Origin: a virus
Taxonomy: Duplodnaviria > Heunggongvirae > Uroviricota > Caudoviricetes
Virus record (IMG/VR): IMGVR_UViG_2695420624_000005
Direction: 5' to 3' (one strand)
DNA: 20,305 nt
A model generated the notes under the pieces. That model saw nothing but the letters and a program-made list of their open reading frames with translations. It ran no database searches and was not told the DNA's origin. Within the stretch, counting starts at the first letter, position 1. Each line of letters starts with the position of its first letter. The translations under genes were made by a program, and so were the position numbers. Below are positions 3,041-20,305 of the stretch, in pieces.

Positions 3041-3534
3041 TGCTGACCCCACAAACAGATTTCACGCTCAATCTCACGACGAGTCATGAGACCTTTCCAT
3101 TGCTTACCGCCAGCATATGTCCAGCGACGTAACTGATCACATGCGCCTTTGATATCGCCCTGGTTTATTTTGCGAAGAAGCGTCGATGTTCTGAAATTGC
3201 CAGCACCCACGTTGTAAACGAATGAGTAAAGAGCGCCGCGCGTTGTTTCCGGTATATCGACTTCGATGTATGGGTTAATTTGTCTGGCGACAGTGGCAAG
3301 GTCTTTATTCAAGAGTGCTTTGCATTCTGCTTTGGTATACGTTTTACCGAGCATGATGTCTTTTCCTGTATGCCCGTGACATACGGTCCATACACCAACA
3401 ATATCTTTGTATGGTATGTAGCTGACACCTTCCAGACCATCGTTACCACTTGGGCCAGTGATTAACACTGATGCTATAGCAATTGCTCCGCCACCAATAG
3501 CAGCAGCAACGGCTTTTCGTAATGATGGAGGCAT
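3037..3534 (-). CDS. rrrD: SAR endolysin (phage 21 R21 / RrrD-type lysozyme)
   Basis: 165 aa; N-terminal signal-anchor-release segment [20 protein letters not shown] followed by a lysozyme domain (…VCHGHTG…[17 protein letters not shown]…); matches R21/RrrD as recalled. Start overlaps the holin stop. Confidence 0.85.
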
Positions 3535-7696: not shown

Positions 7697-8494
7697 TTAC
7701 TCTCTGGAAGCTTTTCTTATCTCTCTTGGTGTTATATTAAAACGATTATGAAATCTTTCAGTAAAACGAGAAGGACACTTATAACCATTTTCTCTGGCAA
7801 TCTCGCTTATAGGTTTTACCGTCGTTTGTATAGCAGACAACGCATTATTTAACCTCACATCGTCCAGTATACTTTGGAAACTTACCCCCTCGCTTGCTAG
7901 ACGGCGATGTAATGTAGAAACAGAAATGTAGAGATATCGAGCAACCTTGTTTGCTGTCCATTTTGTGCCGGGTTCGGATAGCAGCAGGTTATAACAACGA
8001 CTTATCAATGATTGTTTACTATATGATAAAAGTAAATGATTAACATGATTCACTCCTAACGAAAGTAGAACGCCCATTGCTAAGTGCTCCTGAATTTTAG
8101 TTGAGAAGCCTCGGGAAACAGATGTTTTTAGTTGCTCCCAACAATATATTAACTCAGGATTCTGAGGTAAAAAGAAACTTGTTTTGTTACGTATTTGATC
8201 AGTTACCGTATAAAGTTTTTGGAAACTCTCAATTAAATCAATGGGTAAGTAAAGCATTTCTGCAAGATAAAGCCCTGCTTCAGGATAATTCTCAATATAA
8301 AATTCATAACCACAAGGAAATAATATTATTTGATTATTATCAACAGTTAAAGTATGCGTCTCCCAATTGATAACTTTCTTTCCCTGACGGATACGACACA
8401 AAGCTGGCATAAGAGGCTTAACCCTATGAATCTCATGATGTTTATGCATCCGTATTTCTTCGATCTTTAAGTTAGTCTTACCTCTTGCCAGCAT
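7697..8494 (-). CDS. ybcM: AraC/XylS-family transcriptional regulator (YbcM-like)
   Basis: 265 aa; C-terminal AraC-type HTH (…[82 protein letters not shown]…); the gene is visibly AT-rich. Confidence 0.8.
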
Positions 8495-9519: not shown

Positions 9520-11046
9520 TTAGAAATAAATCTCACCATCAACCATATATTTGAGAGCACTTATCGCCTGCTGGGCGGATATTACTTTCATTAAAGGATA
9601 GTGTTTAAAAACAATGCCATTCATAAAATAGATATCACAGGTTTTATTATCCGTATTAATTATGATTTTTTCGAATGTTTTATAGGCAAGTGTACGGCAT
9701 AACTCTCGTCCATTTTTACTGGTTAAGTCAATAGCATAAAAATCACTGAATGAATTTACACCTTTACTCTTCAAAGTTTTCAATGATACCGAAGCCCTTC
9801 GTAATTCCTTATCTAATAGTCTTATTTTCTCTGCTATAGCGGTAACTTCAGGCGCGACAGACAATGCAACGATTAAATTATTAATTTTCATCTGAAGCTC
9901 AATAATTTTTAACTCTAAAGTTTAATTAGCATCTTTCTTGTTTTCAACTGGTTGAATTTTGCTACAATTAAAAAGCAATTCATTAATGATATTATAATCA
10001 ACCAAATCTCTTTTTATTGATGGCCTGTCACATCGATGTAATCTTCTCATCGGACAAACATAATAGCCATGCAAACTTCCAGATACCGCATGAACAATCA
10101 TGGTATTACCACAAGCCTCACACTTCATAACTGTTCGAAGTAGATTTATTAGCATAGGATTCTTGCTACTATTGCTAATACCAAAAGGTGCCAACCGAAT
10201 TTCCTGTACAGCGTAAAACAAATCATCTGATATAACTCTGGGATAATAGCCAGCGATTTCACTTATCCCTTTCCCTCTTGCACGATATGAAGGTACGCAT
10301 ATACCTATCAGAGCTTTATTCGCTAATAATTTTTCAATTACAGAAGGTCCCCATGCACTTTCTTTTCCTGAGAAATTCTTTACAGCATGATCATTTAAAT
10401 ACTTGGCTATTGCATTCAATGAGCGCCTTTCCATCCTGAGTTTAAAAATTAGCTCAATAGTTTTCACCCTGTCGGGGTCTGGAACAAAAGCCGTTCTTTT
10501 GTCATCTAAGGAGAGCCATCTCGGACAAGACGCCGTCATAATCGTACCTGATTCCATTGCATCCTGCCGTTTTTTCTTCCATGATAATTTAACCCGACTT
10601 GACTTTATCTCGCTTTCTTCATTTGCCCTTTGTGCTATAAGTATGGCTTTTATTAATGAATATGGCTCATTCAAAGAGTCAATATTATAGACTGTATTGT
10701 CGCAAAGAGTTATAACATCAATACCGTGATTCAAAATCAATTTCAGACGTTCAATCGCTTCACCGACTTTTTCTCTTGAAAGTCTGTCCAGACTTTCAAC
10801 TAACAATGTAGTTCCTGGCAATATATAACCATGCTCTATAGCATCTAAAAATTCCGAAAAAGCTCCTGATTGTGCATGCTTTCCTTTGAATGCACTTAAT
10901 CCTAAATCTTCATATGTTATGGTATCAAGATAATAATCACTATTTACCTTTAACCATTCAGCAATAAGTCTTCTCTGTCGGTTTAATGAGTCACCAGACA
11001 TCTGACCTGGTGATGAAAATCGCATATATGCTATGGCTTTTTTCAT
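9520..11046 (-). pseudogene. ybcK: Large serine recombinase (YbcK-like) split by a single in-frame TAA into 374-codon and 123-codon ORFs
   Basis: ORFs 9922..11046 (resolvase-type N-terminus MKKAIAYMRFSSPGQ…, recombinase domain, Cys-rich zinc-ribbon region) and 9520..9891 are in the same frame, separated by the TAA at 9922..9924 plus 10 sense codons. Read through, the total is 508 codons. Confidence 0.6.
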
Positions 11047-11300
11047 GGTGACACCTGCTAACGTATGCTTTTATAAACCTTAGTGGTGGGATATAATTTT
11101 TGTTTAATTTTTATTTAAAAAGACAATTAAGGTCACATTATCTTGAATATACAACAATAATCGTATTGCAATTTTCTTACGCCATAATCTTGAAAGCACA
11201 AAAGAATACATAAAAAATAAAGACATTAACAAAAAGCATAAAACGAGGCTCATATAAATATAAGAGCCTCCATATTTTAGTCGTTTAGAAACAAATTATT

Positions 11301-11636
11301 TTAATGTGGTGTGCTTCGTGACAATAAATTAATAACCAACACACCGGCACAAATCAACATCATACCTATAATGGCTGGCAGGTCCAGCCGTTGGCCGAAA
11401 AATCCCCATGACAGTAAACTAATCAGGACAATACCGACTCCTGACCAGATAGCATAAGCAATCCCTGTAGGAATATAAGCCAGCGTCTGAGCTAATAACC
11501 AGAATGATGCACAATAACAAATAATTGTACCAACAGATGGCCATAACCGTGTAAAACCTTCTGAAAACTTCATTAAGGTTGTACCAATGACCTCTGCAAG
11601 TATTGCACCACCAAGATAAATATAAGGGTTCATAGC
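11301..11636 (-). CDS. emrE: Small multidrug resistance (SMR) efflux transporter EmrE
   Basis: MNPYIYLGGAILAEVIGTTLMKFSEGFTRLWPSVGTIICYCASFWLLAQTLAYIPTGIAYAIWSGVGIVLISLLSWGFFGQRLDLPAIIGMMLICAGVLVINLLSRSTPH, 110 aa with four TMDs and the catalytic Glu14. The ORF track's 128 aa form uses an upstream ATG. Confidence 0.9.
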   Translation of the reverse strand, partial: AMNPYIYLGGAILAEVIGTTLMKFSEGFTRLWPSVGTIICYCASFWLLAQTLAYIPTGIAYAIWSGVGIVLISLLSWGFFGQRLDLPAIIGMMLICAGVLVINLLSRSTPH

Positions 11637-11700
11637 ATATTCTTTCCTGTTCAAACTGGAGAGAATTGTACTACAGTTTGAACTCAACTCACCTGTTTCA

Positions 11701-13713: not shown

Positions 13714-14259
13714 TCATATTGCCCCCAGCATGGTGGTGACCATCGCCATCAGTGGACCAGCCAAATCCGGGTCCACACGAAACATCGACACAATGCCTTC
13801 ACTCATCTCCTTCAGTTTCTGGTGGCGTGGTGCGTTGAGAATGACAGCCTGTTTTGCCTCACTGAGTTCCTTTTCCATTTCAGCCAGCCGAGCCATGTAG
13901 CTATCCTGCTCAACCAGGTGGCCGCGATATTCCAGCGGTAGTACCGCCAGAATTGCCGGGGTCAGTTCACGCACGTTATTTCGGTATTTTTCAGAATCGA
14001 ATTTGTTATCGAGGAAGCGGAACAGCTTCTGGCGTGCACGGCTGACATCATCAGGGAAATCGATGGTGCCGCCGCCCTGCTCCCGATACTCATTCACAAT
14101 GAGTGCGGCAACAACATCCTGATTATCTGCAGCCGACCAGGCGCGAACGGCATCACGGATTTTTTCGTGGCCTGGCGCCTGTTTTGTTTGAGAACGATTT
14201 ATCACCGCAGTCGGGCTAAATCCGCTAGTCTGTTGGTATGTAAGTGGTTGCATAGTCAT
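13714..14259 (-). CDS. YdaT-like protein occupying the cII position (function unknown)
   Basis: 181 aa; contains …ALIVNEYREQGGGTIDFP…, reminiscent of the YdaT family found next to ydaS/cro-like genes in lambdoid prophages. No resemblance to lambda CII. Family call from memory. Confidence 0.4.
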   Translation of the reverse strand: MTMQPLTYQQTSGFSPTAVINRSQTKQAPGHEKIRDAVRAWSAADNQDVVAALIVNEYREQGGGTIDFPDDVSRARQKLFRFLDNKFDSEKYRNNVRELTPAILAVLPLEYRGHLVEQDSYMARLAEMEKELSEAKQAVILNAPRHQKLKEMSEGIVSMFRVDPDLAGPLMAMVTTMLGAI

Positions 14260-14283: not shown

Positions 14284-14517
14284 TTAGGCGGCAGAATTAC
14301 TCGCGTTAAACAATGGTGCGAGGTCGGGACGAATATCTGCTGGTTTAATCTTTCCACCAGTGGCTGAGACAATTTTCATTACATAGCGGGCATCAATTCC
14401 GCCACCGTGTAGCCAACGCCAAACTGTGGGTTGGGCTACACCGCATAGATCTGCCAGTCGTTTTTGACTACCTGTAATACTGATTGCGAGTTGAATGGTT
14501 TGATTTGTCATTATCAA
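14284..14517 (-). CDS. cro: Cro-like repressor (YdaS/Cro HTH family)
   Basis: 77 aa with HTH SQKRLADLCGVAQPTVWRWLHGG; divergent from cI across an operator-bearing intergenic region. Confidence 0.7.
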   Translation of the reverse strand: MIMTNQTIQLAISITGSQKRLADLCGVAQPTVWRWLHGGGIDARYVMKIVSATGGKIKPADIRPDLAPLFNASNSAA

Positions 14518-14621
14518 TTCCTATTGGTATTGCAATGAATGAATAATAGCAATGCGTATTAATCCAAGCAATAGCAAAACGTGTTTTGACCATCAATACG
14601 CAAGCGTATAAATTAAAACTT
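14518..14621. promoter_or_regulatory. Immunity-region control region: PR (for cro), PRM (for cI) and OR operators
   Basis: Minus strand PR: -35 TTGCTT (plus 14565..14570), 17-bp spacer, -10 TATTAT (plus 14542..14547). Plus strand PRM: -35 TTGACC (14586..14591), 17-bp spacer, -10 TAAATT (14609..14614), placing the start at or next to the cI ATG. Operator-like 16-mers AATAGCAATGCGTATT (14544..14559) and AATACGCAAGCGTATA (14595..14610); only a weak half-site lies between them. Confidence 0.55.
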
Positions 14622-15314
14622 ATGAAAAAAGAAACTCTTGCTGATCGCTTAAACCTAGCGATGGAACAATCTGGAATGTCTCAAGGCGCTCTTGCAAAGG
14701 CGTCTGGCGTAGCTCAACCCACAATCTGGAGACTGACAAGCGGCAACGCTCGCGGCTCAACAAAAATTGTTGAAATAGCTAATGCATTGGGTGTTCGAAC
14801 AGAATGGCTCTCATCAGGCATAGGCCCGATGAGAAATGACGGTCAACAATCAGGGAAGCCTGCTGTCAGCCATTCAAAATACTTCAAAATTGACGTTCTT
14901 GATATAGAAGTCAGTGCCGGGCCGGGAGTCATCAACCGTGAGTTTGTAGAAGTTCTACGCTCGGTTGAGTACTCGTTTGACGATGCTCGTCACATGTTCG
15001 ATGGTAGGAAGGCAGAAAATATCCGCATCATTAACGTACGCGGTGACAGCATGTCAGGAACGATCGAACCAGGTGATCTTCTGTTCGTTGATATCACGGT
15101 TAAATCTTTCGACGGTGATGGTATCTATGCGTTTCTGTATGACGACACAGCCCATGTAAAGCGCCTGCAAATGATGAAGGATAAGCTGCTAGTTATCTCT
15201 GATAACAAGAGCTACTCACCGTGGGACCCGATCGAGAAAGACGAGATGAACCGGGTATTCATCTTCGGGAAAGTCATCGGAAGCATGCCGCAGACGTATA
15301 GGAAGCATGGGTAG
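14622..15314 (+). CDS. cI: CI-type prophage repressor (N-terminal HTH plus LexA-like S24 autopeptidase domain)
   Basis: From the ATG at 14622: MKKETLADRLNLAMEQSGMSQGALAKASGVAQPTIWRLTSG… and C-terminal …RGDSMSGTIEPGDLLFVD…HVKRLQ (Ser/Lys dyad). The ORF track's TTG start at 14586 seems less likely. Confidence 0.85.
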   Translation: MKKETLADRLNLAMEQSGMSQGALAKASGVAQPTIWRLTSGNARGSTKIVEIANALGVRTEWLSSGIGPMRNDGQQSGKPAVSHSKYFKIDVLDIEVSAGPGVINREFVEVLRSVEYSFDDARHMFDGRKAENIRIINVRGDSMSGTIEPGDLLFVDITVKSFDGDGIYAFLYDDTAHVKRLQMMKDKLLVISDNKSYSPWDPIEKDEMNRVFIFGKVIGSMPQTYRKHG

Positions 15315-15425: not shown

Positions 15426-15440
15426 TTACCATAATGGTAA
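15426..15440. promoter_or_regulatory. 15-bp perfect palindrome TTACCAT-A-ATGGTAA overlapping the first ATG of the toxin gene (candidate antitoxin operator)
   Basis: Read directly from sequence; MqsA antitoxins are known to bind ACCT…AGGT-type palindromes in their own promoters, and this site has an ACCA…TGGT core. Confidence 0.4.
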
Positions 15441-15844
15441 CAAGTATGATTCTTAGCAGATATGTGGGAACTCCTCCCCGTGATGGCGAGGACAGAAAGA
15501 TTCAAGGTGGTCCGCTTTATTTAGATATCATTGATTTGATTGATGAATGTGACACACTGCCTTGGACTAGACGGTGTATCAGGGATGTTCAATCGCTTTC
15601 TTTAGATGCAGATGACATCAAATCTATGGTGATAAAAGCAGTCACTAAAGGGAGATTTCTAGGTTCAGAATGGTGTCAAGGCAGTAAACCAGGTGTATGG
15701 GCAGCTTGTGATGCTTATAGCTTTGAGCACTCATTTTGGTGCCAAGCTATGCATAAAGAACTTAATAACGAGTTCTACATTAAATTTTTTGTAAACATTA
15801 CTGGCAATGTAGTGCTTACAGTATCTCTTCATCTCTCTAATTGA
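15434..15844 (+). CDS. MqsR-family toxin (putative mRNA interferase) with an N-terminal extension; start codon uncertain (15434 or 15446)
   Basis: C-terminal region …LSLDADDIKSMVIKAVTKGRF…FYIKFFVNITGNVVLTVSLHLSN resembles MqsR (…LGLDFDGMCNVIIGLSESDF…VYLKITVIHDVLIVSFKEK, from memory). Toxin gene precedes the antitoxin gene as in mqsRA. Confidence 0.6.
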   Translation: MVTSMILSRYVGTPPRDGEDRKIQGGPLYLDIIDLIDECDTLPWTRRCIRDVQSLSLDADDIKSMVIKAVTKGRFLGSEWCQGSKPGVWAACDAYSFEHSFWCQAMHKELNNEFYIKFFVNITGNVVLTVSLHLSN

Positions 15845-15868
15845 GTGATGATAAATGAGGATTTTTAT

Positions 15869-16456
15869 ATGAGAAACAACAACATATGTCCAGTTTGTGG
15901 TGTAGGTCATCTCACCGTGGAGATGGAGTATGATGATGTTACTTATAAAGGGGAAACAAAAAATCTCCCAATAAGGTTTTCTGTGTGTGATCAATGTGGT
16001 TCGGAAACTGCCACACCAGTCGATTTACGAGAAAACAAACGAATTTTCAATGAATACAAAAAGTCTATCGATGGACTTTTAACAGGAAAAGAATTAAAAA
16101 AAATTAGAACTGAAGTATGGATGATAACCCAGCAAAAGGCATCCTCTATATTTGGTGGGGGGCCTAAGGCATTTTCCAAGTATGAATCTGATGATGTCAT
16201 TCAATCAGAAGCAATGGATAAACTGATGCGTTTAGCAGCAGAAGTTCCTGATGCATTCAAAAGGTTACGGGAATTATCTGGCGAAATCAAAGTTGAAAGA
16301 ACAGTCTCATCATCTAAATCTTTACCTATATGGAAACCTGAAGCAAAAGCACAATTTGAAAACGATGATCAGGGATTTGACAGCAAATCACCAGCCCAAA
16401 CAAAAATGAATCAAACATCAATAAAGATAAAAACTGTTGCTAAGCGGGTAGCATGA
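15869..16456 (+). CDS. MqsA-family antitoxin (zinc-ribbon plus XRE-HTH) with a C-terminal extension of roughly 65 aa
   Basis: Preferred start is the ATG at 15869 (GAGGA 8 nt upstream); the ORF track starts at the GTG at 15845. N-terminal CPVC…CDQC zinc ribbon; HTH …LTGKELKKIRTEVWMITQQKASSIFGGGPKAFSKYE… matches MqsA …LTQKEASEIFGGGVNAFSRYE…; low-complexity tail after about residue 135. Confidence 0.75.
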   Translation: MRNNNICPVCGVGHLTVEMEYDDVTYKGETKNLPIRFSVCDQCGSETATPVDLRENKRIFNEYKKSIDGLLTGKELKKIRTEVWMITQQKASSIFGGGPKAFSKYESDDVIQSEAMDKLMRLAAEVPDAFKRLRELSGEIKVERTVSSSKSLPIWKPEAKAQFENDDQGFDSKSPAQTKMNQTSIKIKTVAKRVA

Positions 16457-16956
16457 TGAATGAACTTCTTAGATCAGCAATAGACGCATTATCAATAATG
16501 CATATCAATATCAGAGAATCTAACTTTGCTTTTTCTGAAGGGTATAATAGCTTTAACTTCAACAGCATAAATAAGCAAACACAATCATTTCGTAAGATAA
16601 AAAAAATCGAAGCTATTGAATTAGTAAGTGACGATGACTCATTAAAAAATGAGCTATATTACTCTTTTCACTACTCAGTTGGGCTTAGATTTATTGCAAA
16701 ATCCGAAGAAACATCTAAAGACGAAAATGATGTTGATACAATTTTTTCTATAGAAGCAATTTTTGAGGCGATATATCGCTCAAAGAGAGAATTATCTAAA
16801 GAAGAGTTAGAAGAATTTGCTAAGCAAAATGTAGGTTTTAATGTATGGCCTTTTTGGCGAGAGTATGTTCAAAACAGCACATCCAGAATGGGAATTACTA
16901 CAATAGCTATACCATTCTTTAAATTCAATAAATCAGACATACCTTCATTAGATTAA
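16453..16956 (+). CDS. SecB-like chaperone (predicted third component of a toxin-antitoxin-chaperone module)
   Basis: 167 aa; start overlaps the antitoxin stop (ATGA). C-terminal half …DTIFSIEAIFEAI…FNVWPFWREYVQNSTSRMGITTIAIPFFKF resembles E. coli SecB …FLCEVQQGGIFSIAGIEG…[30 protein letters not shown] (from memory). Size matches SecB (about 155 aa). Confidence 0.55.
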   Translation: MMNELLRSAIDALSIMHINIRESNFAFSEGYNSFNFNSINKQTQSFRKIKKIEAIELVSDDDSLKNELYYSFHYSVGLRFIAKSEETSKDENDVDTIFSIEAIFEAIYRSKRELSKEELEEFAKQNVGFNVWPFWREYVQNSTSRMGITTIAIPFFKFNKSDIPSLD

Positions 16957-16970
16957 ATTCAAATATAACT

Positions 16971-16997
16971 CCCGGCTACCGTGCCGGGTTTTCTTTT
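16971..16997 (+). terminator. Intrinsic terminator ending the cI/TAC transcription unit
   Basis: CCCGGC-TACCGT-GCCGGG hairpin followed by TTTTCTTTT, 15 bp after the stop of the SecB-like gene. Confidence 0.7.
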
Positions 16998-17119
16998 GCC
17001 CTCCCCCCATCACACAAACCGTTCAAAAAACCACCACGACCTCACTTCAGTTATCGCTATGCGATGCAAGTCACAAAATTAATTCTTTTTGCTATCAAAC
17101 ATTTAATATCAAAACACAT

Positions 17120-17170
17120 CAACTAATAGCAATAAGCATTGATATCACCAATAGCAATAGCTATTATCAC
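17120..17170 (+). promoter_or_regulatory. PL-like promoter with OL operators
   Basis: -35 TTGATA (17139..17144), 17-bp spacer, -10 TATTAT (17162..17167). The perfect 16-bp palindrome AATAGC-AATA-GCTATT (17150..17165) overlaps the spacer and -10; a second related 16-mer AATAGCAATAAGCATT lies at 17124..17139. Same half-site family as in OR. Confidence 0.6.
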
Positions 17171-17273
17171 CATATCGCAACAACACAACGATACGGCAAC
17201 CACCTGATTCACCGTTGCGATGACCGCTTAGATCCGCAGCTTGAATTTCAGCAGGCTTCGGGGAGTGCGAGGG

Positions 17274-17651
17274 ATGAAACGGACGCGTGAACGTCGGTGT
17301 GACCAGCTGAAATCAACTCAACATTTCATACCTTAGTCGCTTCAACGAGGCGGCTTAGTTATGACAACCGGCGGCCATCCACCGCCTGAATACGCGCAGA
17401 AGTCTTTATATGTTCAGCAGCCCAGCTTACGGGCAGGAGTTTTTATGGTTCATCAACATTACGGAACGCAGACCGTTAATCGCGGTGCGGTCATGCCAGG
17501 AATGCTGGTCAAACGCAAAGATGGTACCTGGACTGCATCAGCTAATTTACACGGACGACTTTATCTGCATCGCGGCATTGAGCGCACTTATACCCGTGAC
17601 TTGCTCGTGGAAGTTTTTCTCGACGGACGCGGCAACGGTCTGAATCACTAA
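17274..17651 (+). pseudogene. Candidate N-like antiterminator frame interrupted by an in-frame TAG (20-codon Arg-rich peptide, then a 96-codon ORF at 17361..17651)
   Basis: 17274..17336 encodes MKRTRERRCDQLKSTQHFIP followed by TAG; the same frame continues into the 96 aa ORF whose C-terminus …RLYLHRGIERTYTRD… loosely resembles the lambda N C-terminus …RTWYSKPGERGITCSG…. Position is right after PL/OL. Weak evidence. Confidence 0.3.
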
Positions 17652-17726: not shown

Positions 17727-18887
17727 ATGAACGCTTATTACATTCAGGATCGTCTTGAGGCTCAGAGCTGGGCGCGTCACTACCAGCAGATCGCCCGTGA
17801 AGAGAAAGAGGCAGAACTGGCAGACGACATGGAAAAAGGCCTGCCCCAGCACCTGTTTGAATCGCTATGTATCGATCATTTGCAACGCCACGGGGCCAGC
17901 AAAAAAGCCATTAAAGAGTTTGGATTAGGCAGAGACAGGCGAATCGCAATCACTGAAGCTATACAGGCCAACATTGAGTTATTTTCAGGACACAAACACA
18001 AGCCTCTGACAGCGAGAATCAACAGTGATAATTCCGTTACGTTACATTCATGGCTTGATCGCTACGAAAAAATCCTGGCCAGCAGAGGAATCAAACAGAA
18101 GACACTCATAAATTACATGAGCAAAATTAAAGCAATAAGGAGGGGTCTGCCTGATGCTCCACTTGAAGACATCACCACAAAAGAAATTGCGGCAATGCTC
18201 AATGGATACATAAACGAGGGCAAGGCGGCGTCAGCCAAGTTAATCAGATCAACACTGAGCGATGCATTCCGAGAGGCAATAGCTGAAGGCCATATAACAA
18301 CAAACCCTGTCGCTGCCACTCGCGCAGCAAAATCAGAGGTAAGGAGATCAAGACTTACGGCTGACGAATACCTGAAAATTTATCAAGCAGCAGAATCATC
18401 ACCATGTTGGCTCAGACTTGCAATGGAACTGGCTGTTGTTACCGGGCAACGAGTTGGTGATTTATGCGAAATGAAGTGGTCTGATATCGTAGATGGATAT
18501 CTTTATGTCGAGCAAAGCAAAACAGGCGTAAAAATTGCCATCCCAACAGCATTGCATGTTGATGCTCTCGGAATATCAATGAAGGAAACACTTGATAAAT
18601 GCAAAGAGATTCTTGGCGGAGAAACCATAATTGCATCTACTCGTCGCGAACCGCTTTCATCCGGCACAGTATCAAGGTATTTTATGCGCGCACGAAAAGC
18701 ATCAGGTCTTTCCTTCGAAGGGGATCCGCCTACCTTTCACGAGTTGCGCAGTTTGTCTGCAAGACTCTATGAGAAGCAGATAAGCGATAAGTTTGCTCAA
18801 CATCTTCTCGGGCATAAGTCGGACACCATGGCATCACAGTATCGTGATGACAGAGGCAGGGAGTGGGACAAAATTGAAATCAAATAA
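17727..18887 (+). CDS. int: In-frame gam'-'int fusion: first 62 codons of GamS joined to lambda integrase from about residue 34 to the C-terminus
   Basis: [60 protein letters not shown] matches the short form of lambda Gam; from …[46 protein letters not shown]… to …[28 protein letters not shown] the protein matches lambda Int. The GamS RBS (AGGAG) is retained upstream. No xis, bet or exo is present. Confidence 0.8.
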
Positions 18888-19021: not shown

Positions 19022-20305
19022 GTGAACACATTTTCAGTTTCCCGTCTGGCGCTGGCATTGGCTTTTGGCGTGACGCTGACCGCCTGTAGCTCAACCCCGC
19101 CCGATCAACGTCCTTCTGATCAAACCGCGCCTGGTACCTCTTCTCGCCCGATTCTGTCGGCAAAAGAAGCGCAGAATTTCGATGCTCAACACTATTTTGC
19201 ATCCCTGACACCAGGTGCTGCAGCGTGGAATCCTTCCCCGATTACCCTGCCTGCGCAACCTGACTTTGTTGTCGGCCCGGCGGGCACTCAAGGTGTAACG
19301 CATACCACGATTCAGGCGGCGGTAGATGCGGCAATTATCAAGCGTACCAACAAGCGCCAGTATATTGCCGTGATGCCTGGTGAGTATCAGGGAACGGTAT
19401 ATGTCCCTGCCGCTCCGGGTGGAATTACTCTGTACGGTACAGGTGAAAAACCGATTGATGTGAAGATTGGGCTTTCCCTTGATGGTGGCATGAGCCCTGC
19501 CGACTGGCGTCACGACGTCAACCCGCGCGGCAAATATATGCCAGGTAAACCAGCGTGGTATATGTACGATAGCTGCCAGAGCAAACGCAGCGACAGTATC
19601 GGTGTTCTCTGCTCTGCGGTCTTCTGGTCACAAAACAATGGCCTGCAACTGCAAAATCTGACCATCGAAAACACGCTGGGCGATAGCGTAGATGCAGGTA
19701 ACCATCCGGCGGTGGCACTGCGTACTGATGGTGACCAGGTACAGATTAACAACGTTAACATTCTCGGTCGTCAGAACACCTTCTTTGTCACCAACAGCGG
19801 TGTGCAGAACCGTCTGGAAACAAATCGTCAGCCGCGTACGCTGGTGACCAACAGCTACATTGAAGGGGATGTGGATATCGTTTCTGGTCGCGGCGCAGTG
19901 GTGTTCGATAACACCGAATTCCGCGTGGTGAACTCACGTACTCAGCAAGAAGCGTATGTGTTTGCACCGGCTACGCTGTCCAACATTTACTACGGTTTCC
20001 TCGCCGTAAACAGCCGTTTCAATGCTTTCGGTGATGGTGTGGCGCAACTGGGCCGCTCGCTGGATGTTGATGCCAATACCAACGGTCAGGTGGTGATCCG
20101 TGATAGCGCCATCAACGAAGGTTTTAACACGGCTAAACCGTGGGCCGATGCGGTGATCTCTAATCGTCCGTTTGCGGGTAATACCGGCAGCGTAGATGAT
20201 AACGACGAAATACAGCGCAATCTGAATGACACTAACTACAACCGCATGTGGGAATACAATAACCGCGGCGTGGGTAGTAAAGTGGTTGCAGAGGCGAAGA
20301 AGTAA
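19022..20305 (+). CDS. ybhC: Host lipoprotein YbhC (pectinesterase-like fold; putative acyl-CoA thioesterase), gene flanking the lambda attachment site
   Basis: 427 aa, GTG start, lipoprotein signal MNTFSVSRLALALAFGVTLTAC; sequence matches YbhC as recalled. Ordinary host GC content and codon usage, in contrast to the prophage cargo. Confidence 0.8.
   Translation: MNTFSVSRLALALAFGVTLTACSSTPPDQRPSDQTAPGTSSRPILSAKEAQNFDAQHYFASLTPGAAAWNPSPITLPAQPDFVVGPAGTQGVTHTTIQAAVDAAIIKRTNKRQYIAVMPGEYQGTVYVPAAPGGITLYGTGEKPIDVKIGLSLDGGMSPADWRHDVNPRGKYMPGKPAWYMYDSCQSKRSDSIGVLCSAVFWSQNNGLQLQNLTIENTLGDSVDAGNHPAVALRTDGDQVQINNVNILGRQNTFFVTNSGVQNRLETNRQPRTLVTNSYIEGDVDIVSGRGAVVFDNTEFRVVNSRTQQEAYVFAPATLSNIYYGFLAVNSRFNAFGDGVAQLGRSLDVDANTNGQVVIRDSAINEGFNTAKPWADAVISNRPFAGNTGSVDDNDEIQRNLNDTNYNRMWEYNNRGVGSKVVAEAKK

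Follow-up and report, generated by a model that had tools for sequence, protein, structure and literature searches.

Candidate operators of a common non-lambda immunity type in a defective lambdoid prophage of Escherichia coli

Lambdoid switches and the prophage region

In phage lambda, three operators serve the divergent promoters PR and PRM, and PL has two strong operators and a third position. The lambda cI mRNA is leaderless, the repressor joins a helix-turn-helix domain to an S24 self-cleaving domain, and variable cargo, which is rexAB in lambda, follows the gene. The operator of phage 434 is the 14-bp sequence ACAA-N6-TTGT, and that of P22/21 is ATTTAAG-N4-CTTAAAT. The cI protein of HK022 occupies neighbouring sites cooperatively and, like the lambda repressor, is known to form loops between OL and OR (PMC8053113). 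In the Salmonella phage BTP1, cI and bstA constitute one operon with a single transcription start, and BTP1 lysogens contain cI at ~35-290 TPM and cro at ~4-37 TPM (PMC7067206). A phage-defence role has been described for toxin-antitoxin-chaperone systems at the locus downstream of cI (bioRxiv 10.1101/2024.02.24.581848).

The DNA analysed here, a stretch of 20,305 nucleotides that we refer to as the window, is a segment of the E. coli chromosome in which a defective lambdoid prophage occupies the lambda attachment site. In order, ren-P-O come first, followed by a YdaT-type "cII" and cro (minus strand); next are cI, a unit of toxin, MqsA-like antitoxin and SecB-like chaperone genes, then PL, kil and gam'-'int (plus strand). 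Positions 14518-14621 are exactly the intergenic region of cro and cI. Over the 4-kb immunity region, the isolated phage PhiR70_1 is 99.9% identical to the window. The genes and related features are as follows.

14284..14511, minus strand: cro, 75 aa, YdaS/P22-Cro-type helix-turn-helix (open reading frame; PGAP annotation of identical DNA; PF15943, 9.6e-15)
14622..15314, plus strand: cI, 230 aa, HTH_3 (PF01381, 1.8e-6) and Peptidase_S24 (PF00717, 1.3e-18)
15434..16956, plus strand: toxin, MqsA-like antitoxin and SecB-like chaperone (the TAC cargo), in the slot downstream of cI
16971..16988, plus strand: terminator-like hairpin with a T-run, directly 3' of the chaperone gene
17727-18887: gam'-'int fusion ORF adjoining ybhC, the start of gam joined to the C-terminal four-fifths of a lambda-type int
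19022-20305: ybhC

Because the start of gam is fused to int in a single open reading frame, we conclude that the bet-exo-xis region was deleted. The fusion is in frame and combines the first ~60 codons of gam with an int that is devoid of its N-terminal arm-binding part; RefSeq labels the two halves as pseudogenes. Relative to PhiR70_1, the window prophage has lost bet, exo, xis and neighbouring genes, and it is therefore unable to excise. A block of emrE, ylcJ and a ybcK-type serine recombinase follows ren at 9922-11687, as in the DLP12 prophage of K-12, and PhiR70_1 also carries this block. At the cII position (13714-14259), the window encodes a YdaT-domain protein (PF06254, 2.4e-29; PHROG 'CII-like activator') and not a lambda-type CII, and such a protein also occupies this position in HK639 and in the Rac prophage.

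The third helix of cI reads AQPTIWRLTSG, and the best solved-structure match of its N-terminal domain is the 434 repressor (1.6e-5). As read from the translation, the C-terminal domain is of the S24 LexA type, with an Ala-Gly site (VSAGPG), the serine of GDSM and the lysine of VKRL. This cI (WP_001295669.1) is 100% identical to that of the isolated phage PhiR30_1. Helix 3 of Cro, AQPTVWRW, is nearly the same as that of cI, and the motif AQPT(I/V)WR common to both proteins accounts for 7 of 11 residues in the helix-3 segment. To judge from the two translations, this is as expected for two proteins that read the same sites.

The layout of the lambda switch given above recurs in the window, with predicted promoters and a cI mRNA that is probably leaderless, and the annotated lambda operators lie at essentially the same offsets from PR, PL and PRM. 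However, the lambda sites are 17 bp long and of the TATCACCGC type (TATCACCGC...GGTGATA), spaced 23-24 and 20-24 bp, whereas those of the window are 16-bp AATA-SS-N4-SS-TATT sequences with a uniform spacing of 25 bp. The window also differs from lambda in its 434-like HTH_3 N-terminal domain, its all-helical YdaS/P22-type Cro, its near-consensus PRM -35, the YdaT-domain protein at the cII position and the absence of N after PL (no N-like ORF lies between PL and kil/gam, 17168-17360).

The TAC unit places 2.5 kb between OR and OL, and its toxin has no Pfam or PADLOC match. By analogy with the cI-bstA operon of BTP1, the unit is probably co-transcribed with cI, and the cI-TAC transcript likely ends at the hairpin at 16971..16988. 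Relatives carry other cargo in this slot, namely BstA (BTP1), orf23 (ST104), a SIR2 protein (O157:H7 G5295), HipA/HipD (PhiR5_1) or a ParA-like gene (Klebsiella phage).

Operator sites and predicted promoters

Five 16-bp sites in the window fit AATA-S-S-N4-S-S-TATT, three between cro and cI and two at a PL-like promoter.

14545..14560: OR1, AATAGCAATGCGTATT, covering about -24 to -9 of PR
14570..14585: OR2, AATAGCAAAACGTGTT, covering about -49 to -34 of PR and abutting the PRM -35
14595..14610: OR3, AATACGCAAGCGTATA, between the -35 and -10 of PRM (about -27 to -12)
17125..17140: OL2, AATAGCAATAAGCATT, covering about -49 to -34 of PL
17150..17165: OL1, AATAGCAATAGCTATT, a perfect palindrome covering about -24 to -9 of PL

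We consider these sites to be, very probably, operators, belonging to a standard lambdoid CI/Cro switch whose immunity type is not that of lambda. The initial annotation of this DNA had proposed that one half-site family occurs on both sides of the cI/TAC unit, and the three OR sites and two OL sites bear this out. It had also given the shared element as AATAGC-N4-GCTATT; the repeats are real in both OR and OL, but this strict form is too narrow and is matched by OL1 only, since the other sites have CG, CT or CC as inner dinucleotides of their half-sites. The core that is conserved reads AATA...TATT.

When at most one mismatch is allowed, the pattern AATASSNNNNSSTATT has five matches in the window against 0.44 expected, a number reached in 0 of 100 shuffles. 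These matches are OR1, OR2, OR3, OL1 and an element of the cro leader at 14516, all within the cro-cI and PL regions, and OL2, with two mismatches, falls outside this set. At two mismatches, no enrichment was found in the window (11 occurrences against 8.4 expected); thus, the signal resides in good sites and their placement and not in loose matches. The starts of the sites (14545, 14570 and 14595; 17125 and 17150) are separated by exactly 25 bp from one neighbour to the next. Over 37 distinct sites, the information of the half-site lies mostly in positions 1-4 (AATA), followed by C or G at positions 5-6 and an A/T-rich centre.

The half-site position represented by 17137 in OL2 is A or T in 73 of 74 half-sites. 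The window has C at 17137 where PhiR70_1 and every other relative have T, so that the half of OL2 reads AGCATT in the window and AGTATT or CGTATT in PhiR70_1 and the other relatives; this C may represent a weakened operator in a defective prophage. A degenerate remnant of a third OL site, of which only the left half is present (AATATCAAAACACATC, 17105..17120), lies 20 bp from OL2; in the Klebsiella phage (AATAGCCATTGCTATC) and in Raoultella (AATGCTAATTGCTATT), a complete site stands at this position. OL1 is bordered by two lambda-like TATCACC heptamers (17143-17149 and 17165-17171). As lambda half-sites these heptamers were rejected, being neither conserved in ST104 and BTP1 nor scored by a lambda-operator matrix, and they are probably chance or vestigial.

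The sites overlap the -35 and -10 hexamers of predicted PR and PL promoters, and the third OR site overlaps a predicted PRM.

14543..14571, minus strand: predicted PR, -35 TTGCTT (14571..14566), 17-nt spacer, -10 TATTAT (14548..14543), predicted start at about 14536
14586..14614, plus strand: predicted PRM from the promoter scan, TTGACC, 17-nt spacer, TAAATT
17139..17167, plus strand: predicted PL, TTGATA (17139-17144), 17-nt spacer, TATTAT (17162-17167), 10/12 matches

PR was found by a relaxed scan only (8/12 matches); the standard scan misses it because its -35, TTGCTT, matches consensus at 3 of 6 positions. In the flanks of the sites of relatives, the TTGC and TATTAT of PR are conserved. 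PR and PL are built alike: the start of the -10 TATTAT shares four terminal bases with OR1 or OL1, and the start of the -35 shares two with OR2 or OL2. Accordingly, the perfect palindrome that had been noticed on the PL -10 and the second copy at its -35 are OL1 (on TATTAT) and OL2 (overlapping TTGATA by 2 nt), and the copies reported at PR and PRM correspond to OR1 and OR3.

Downstream of PL, 16 E. coli lambdoid phages representing three or more immunity types share the 190-nt leader at 94.7% identity or higher, and the boundary of the immunity module lies directly after the PL -10. HK639 has an annotated putL-like antiterminator RNA, to which the PL leader of the window is not obviously homologous. 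No credible match came from Rfam scans of either the window or the PL leader, the leader folded no better than its shuffles (z -0.15), and it is too conserved for covariation analysis.

The cI ATG (14622) lies 7 nt after the PRM -10, the intervening gap has no Shine-Dalgarno sequence, and the length of this TAAATT-ATG gap is kept in the ten related loci described below while its sequence varies. Because of these three properties, a cI mRNA that is leaderless, as first suggested, or has a 1-nt leader fits the sequence. The annotated cI of BTP1 (726 bp; D23580 378838..379563, minus strand) begins at a TTG, at the first base of the PRM -35 hexamer (BTP1 locus 3465-3503), and ORF finders return the same 242-aa reading in the window (14586-14621). 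The ATG 36 nt downstream of this TTG is the more likely start. The dRNA-seq papers on D23580/BTP1 state a single cI-bstA start, and a search of this material found no nucleotide coordinates for it.

In lambda, OR2 is centred at about -42 of PRM, but in the window at about -44.5, and here the PRM -35 is itself close to consensus; for these two reasons, lambda-style activation of PRM from OR2 is doubtful. The equal 25-bp phasing, a C-terminal domain like that of the highly cooperative HK022 repressor and the near-consensus PRM -35 allow a family that operates unlike lambda, in which repressor would occupy all three OR sites together, either as a single cooperative unit or by way of an OL-OR loop, and PRM would be set mainly by repression. 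We regard such a mode as unlikely. A further element may belong to the same scheme.

14516..14531: possible weak fourth site in the cro leader, AATTCCTATTGGTATT, spanning about +6 to +21 of the PR transcript, matrix score 15.6

The sequence AATTCCTATTGGTATT comprises one good and one defective half-site, includes the Shine-Dalgarno sequence of cro, and lies 29 bp from OR1, which is out of the 25-bp register. Its form AATTCC-N4-RGTATT is kept in the E. coli, Klebsiella, Kluyvera, Citrobacter and Raoultella loci and not in ST104 or BTP1, and the Shine-Dalgarno sequence does not account for the conserved outer AATAC half-site. The element could be an extra operator that blocks cro after initiation, but in combination with a non-lambda mode of cooperativity or PRM control we give this little credence. 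Operators of a standard lambdoid switch remain our preferred interpretation of the five principal sites.

Operator motif and recognition helix in related loci

A matrix was built from the five sites of the window and then run on other loci, so that the hits outside the window alone are independent of the training set. The comparison includes ten loci that encode the cI helix AQPTIWRL(T/V)SG, namely the window, PhiR70_1, Salmonella ST104, BTP1, the Klebsiella phage ST11-VIM1phi8.2 and prophages of Kluyvera intermedia, K. cryocrescens, K. georgiana, Citrobacter pasteurii and Raoultella lignicola. A motif search of related prophages had been proposed as a check on the operators, and it found the sites in the same places in all ten of these loci: three at -77, -52 and -27 from the cI ATG, and two, 25 bp apart, at a PL-like promoter 1.9-2.9 kb downstream. 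A scan of genome contigs contributed only 6 loci; the comparative set is therefore small and related, and because the loci are related, the agreement among the ten partly reflects shared descent.

The sites were absent where the N-terminal domain of the repressor was of another type. At OR and OL of PhiR5_1, the Klebsiella phage ST15-VIM1phi2.1, K. grimontii, HK022, HK639, SH2026Stx1 and DE3 (imm21), the window matrix found no sites. PhiR5_1, ST15-VIM1phi2.1 and K. grimontii have a closely related C-terminal domain and related neighbouring genes, but a different N-terminal domain and other repeated motifs. Phages HK639 and SH2026Stx1 share with the window a homologous cI (45% identity overall and 57% in the N-terminal domain), the layout of cro, YdaT-type cII and cI, and three OR sites of half-site/N4/half-site design; they differ in the half-site, ATAAC instead of AATAGC, and in helix 3, QPAIQK instead of QPTIWR. 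The HK639 type is thus a sister specificity. The window type combines the cI helix QPTIWR with the Cro helix QPTVWR and the operator AATAGC, the HK639 type combines QPAIQK with QPAVHK and ATAAC-N4-GTTAT, and the PhiR5_1 type combines QAAIQK with QQAVYK and a third operator motif. Because these trios differ among the three immunity types, the cI helix, the Cro helix and the operator change together. As far as can be read from these sequences, the operator motif tracks the DNA-binding helix of cI.

The OL sites vary between genera (AATACTCAATGCTATT, AATACCCATTGCTATT and AATAGCAATACGTATT), yet all of them retain AATA...TATT. OR2 is identical in nine of the ten loci, which come from six genera, while the adjacent spacers diverge, although OR2 and OR3 overlap PRM elements that would be conserved anyway. 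This identity bears on the status of the middle OR site, which the initial annotation took for a weak half-site. According to such a view, only the sites at the PR and PRM -10 hexamers are real, the middle one is vestigial, and OR has no cooperative or activating site of the OR2 type. The right half of the middle site, CGTGTT, indeed has three mismatches to the strict AATAGC-N4-GCTATT. However, CG is a normal inner dinucleotide, and OR1 and OR3 also contain CGTAT. The middle sequence is a full 16-mer that scores 16.7 bits, level with OR3 (16.2) and OL2 (16.4), and it stands in the exact 25-bp register, mirroring the position of OL2 on PL. Together with the identity of OR2 across genera, this argues for a complete site, and an OR of two sites is quite improbable. 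We therefore keep a three-site OR in the standard lambdoid switch.

The motif is A/T-rich and overlaps -10-like hexamers, and the two-mismatch pattern is not enriched, so the palindromes might be chance features of promoter sequence or sites for the MqsA-like antitoxin or a host protein. This is very unlikely given the clear enrichment at one mismatch or fewer, the retention of the sites in loci with BstA, SIR2, ParA-like or other cargo in place of TAC, and their loss in PhiR5_1, which has the same C-terminal domain and neighbours but another N-terminal domain.

The specificity could also be a classical immunity (lambda, 434, P22/21 or HK022) under another name, as the record of ST104 calls its cI and cro similar to those of HK022 and the 434 repressor is the best solved relative of the N-terminal domain. 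The comparisons with each of these leave this hardly credible. A matrix from the six annotated lambda operators gave nothing in the window at or above 13.9, the score of the weakest lambda operator; its best score, 10.5 at 7718, lies outside OR and OL. Conversely, the window matrix had no match in lambda 35300-38400, and the impression that the motif is not that of lambda thus held in both directions. Neither ACAA-N6-TTGT nor ATTTAAG-N4-CTTAAAT occurs in OR or OL at one mismatch or fewer. The 434 operators resemble those of the window in having conserved outer bases and a variable centre, but they are 14 bp long and not 16 bp. The HK022 cI has a related C-terminal oligomerisation/cleavage domain, and its 40% identity to the cI of the window lies mostly there; its N-terminal domain type and operators are unrelated, and HK022 was rejected as the immunity type. 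The imm21 region was likewise rejected, because the repressor of the DE3 prophage in BL21(DE3) is a different protein of 216 aa and its operators, read directly in that region, are of the P22 type. The repressor in the paper on vB_EcoP_ZX5 was also considered and proved unrelated.

The suggestion that this repressor defines its own immunity group holds in that the sites appear to be non-lambda operators shared by OR and OL, but the same helix and operators are far from private. Of 5426 complete E. coli genomes, 719 carry the module of cro, OR and the cI N-terminal domain at 95% identity or more, LF82 and O157:H7 among them, and the module is also present in the isolated phages 4A7, Lambda_4C10, Perceval, 1W, 3W, D2, PhiR30_1, PhiR68_2 and PhiR70_1. 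The P22-like Salmonella phages ST104, BTP1 and SE1Spa also carry it, with cI proteins 86-88% identical to that of the window. Across BTP1, ST104, SE1Spa, PhiR70_1, PhiR30_1, 4A7, Lambda_4C10 and Perceval, the range is 86-100% with the same helix, and in the Salmonella and E. coli phages alike the three OR sites keep their distances from the ATG and the members of the OL pair are 25 bp apart. The BTP1/ST104 group differs in the cargo after cI and in the inner and central positions of the OL sites, and the three Salmonella phages possess N. Because the motif follows the AQPTIWRL helix across ten loci and is absent with other N-terminal domains, we conclude that the specificity is non-lambda but not private, one of many lambdoid immunity types and a common one.

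Proposed switch and use of the operator map

The arrangement is lambda-like and the recognition sequence is common to many sequenced phages, and we therefore interpret the locus as an ordinary genetic switch. By analogy with the described systems, we infer the binding of cI and Cro, the order of site occupancy, cooperativity, OL-OR looping and any PRM activation from OR2. As a dimer, the 230-aa cI would read the 16-bp sites through a 434-like helix-turn-helix, recognising the invariant outer AATA/TATT, an inner G/C-rich pair and an A/T-rich centre. Pairs of dimers 25 bp apart on OR1-OR2 and OL1-OL2 would occlude the -10 and -35 hexamers of PR and PL and keep the prophage silent, and OR3, lying inside PRM, would mediate negative autoregulation by stopping cI synthesis once repressor is abundant. 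With almost the same recognition helix, Cro would read the same sites. In lysogens of BTP1, whose operators are the same, the high cI and low cro expression is in keeping with this scheme. The cI protein would be translated from a PRM transcript that is leaderless or has a 1-nt leader and that probably runs on into the toxin-antitoxin-chaperone cargo. Induction would follow RecA-stimulated self-cleavage at the Ala-Gly site, in a prophage that the gam-int deletion has crippled.

The earlier observation holds up and is for the most part accurate, and the interpretation drawn from it is correct as to kind but goes too far. The immunity type is an ordinary one among lambdoid phages and widespread, and its operators have apparently not been published before, as far as our literature search could find. 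That search, which was thin on subscription journals, found no published definition of these operators; nothing relevant was returned for the exact operator 16-mers or for the BTP1 operators, and it turned up no binding, footprint or transcription-start data for the module. In principle, the locus adds nothing new beyond lambda, 434, P22 and HK022, and its value is practical only. It supplies an operator consensus and a promoter map for a module present in ~13% of complete E. coli genomes, in the prophages of O157:H7 and LF82, and in BTP1 and ST104. The consensus and the map can be used to predict superinfection immunity between prophages, to annotate the correct cI start, and to consider how the defence cargo after cI (TAC, BstA and SIR2) is expressed in lysogens.
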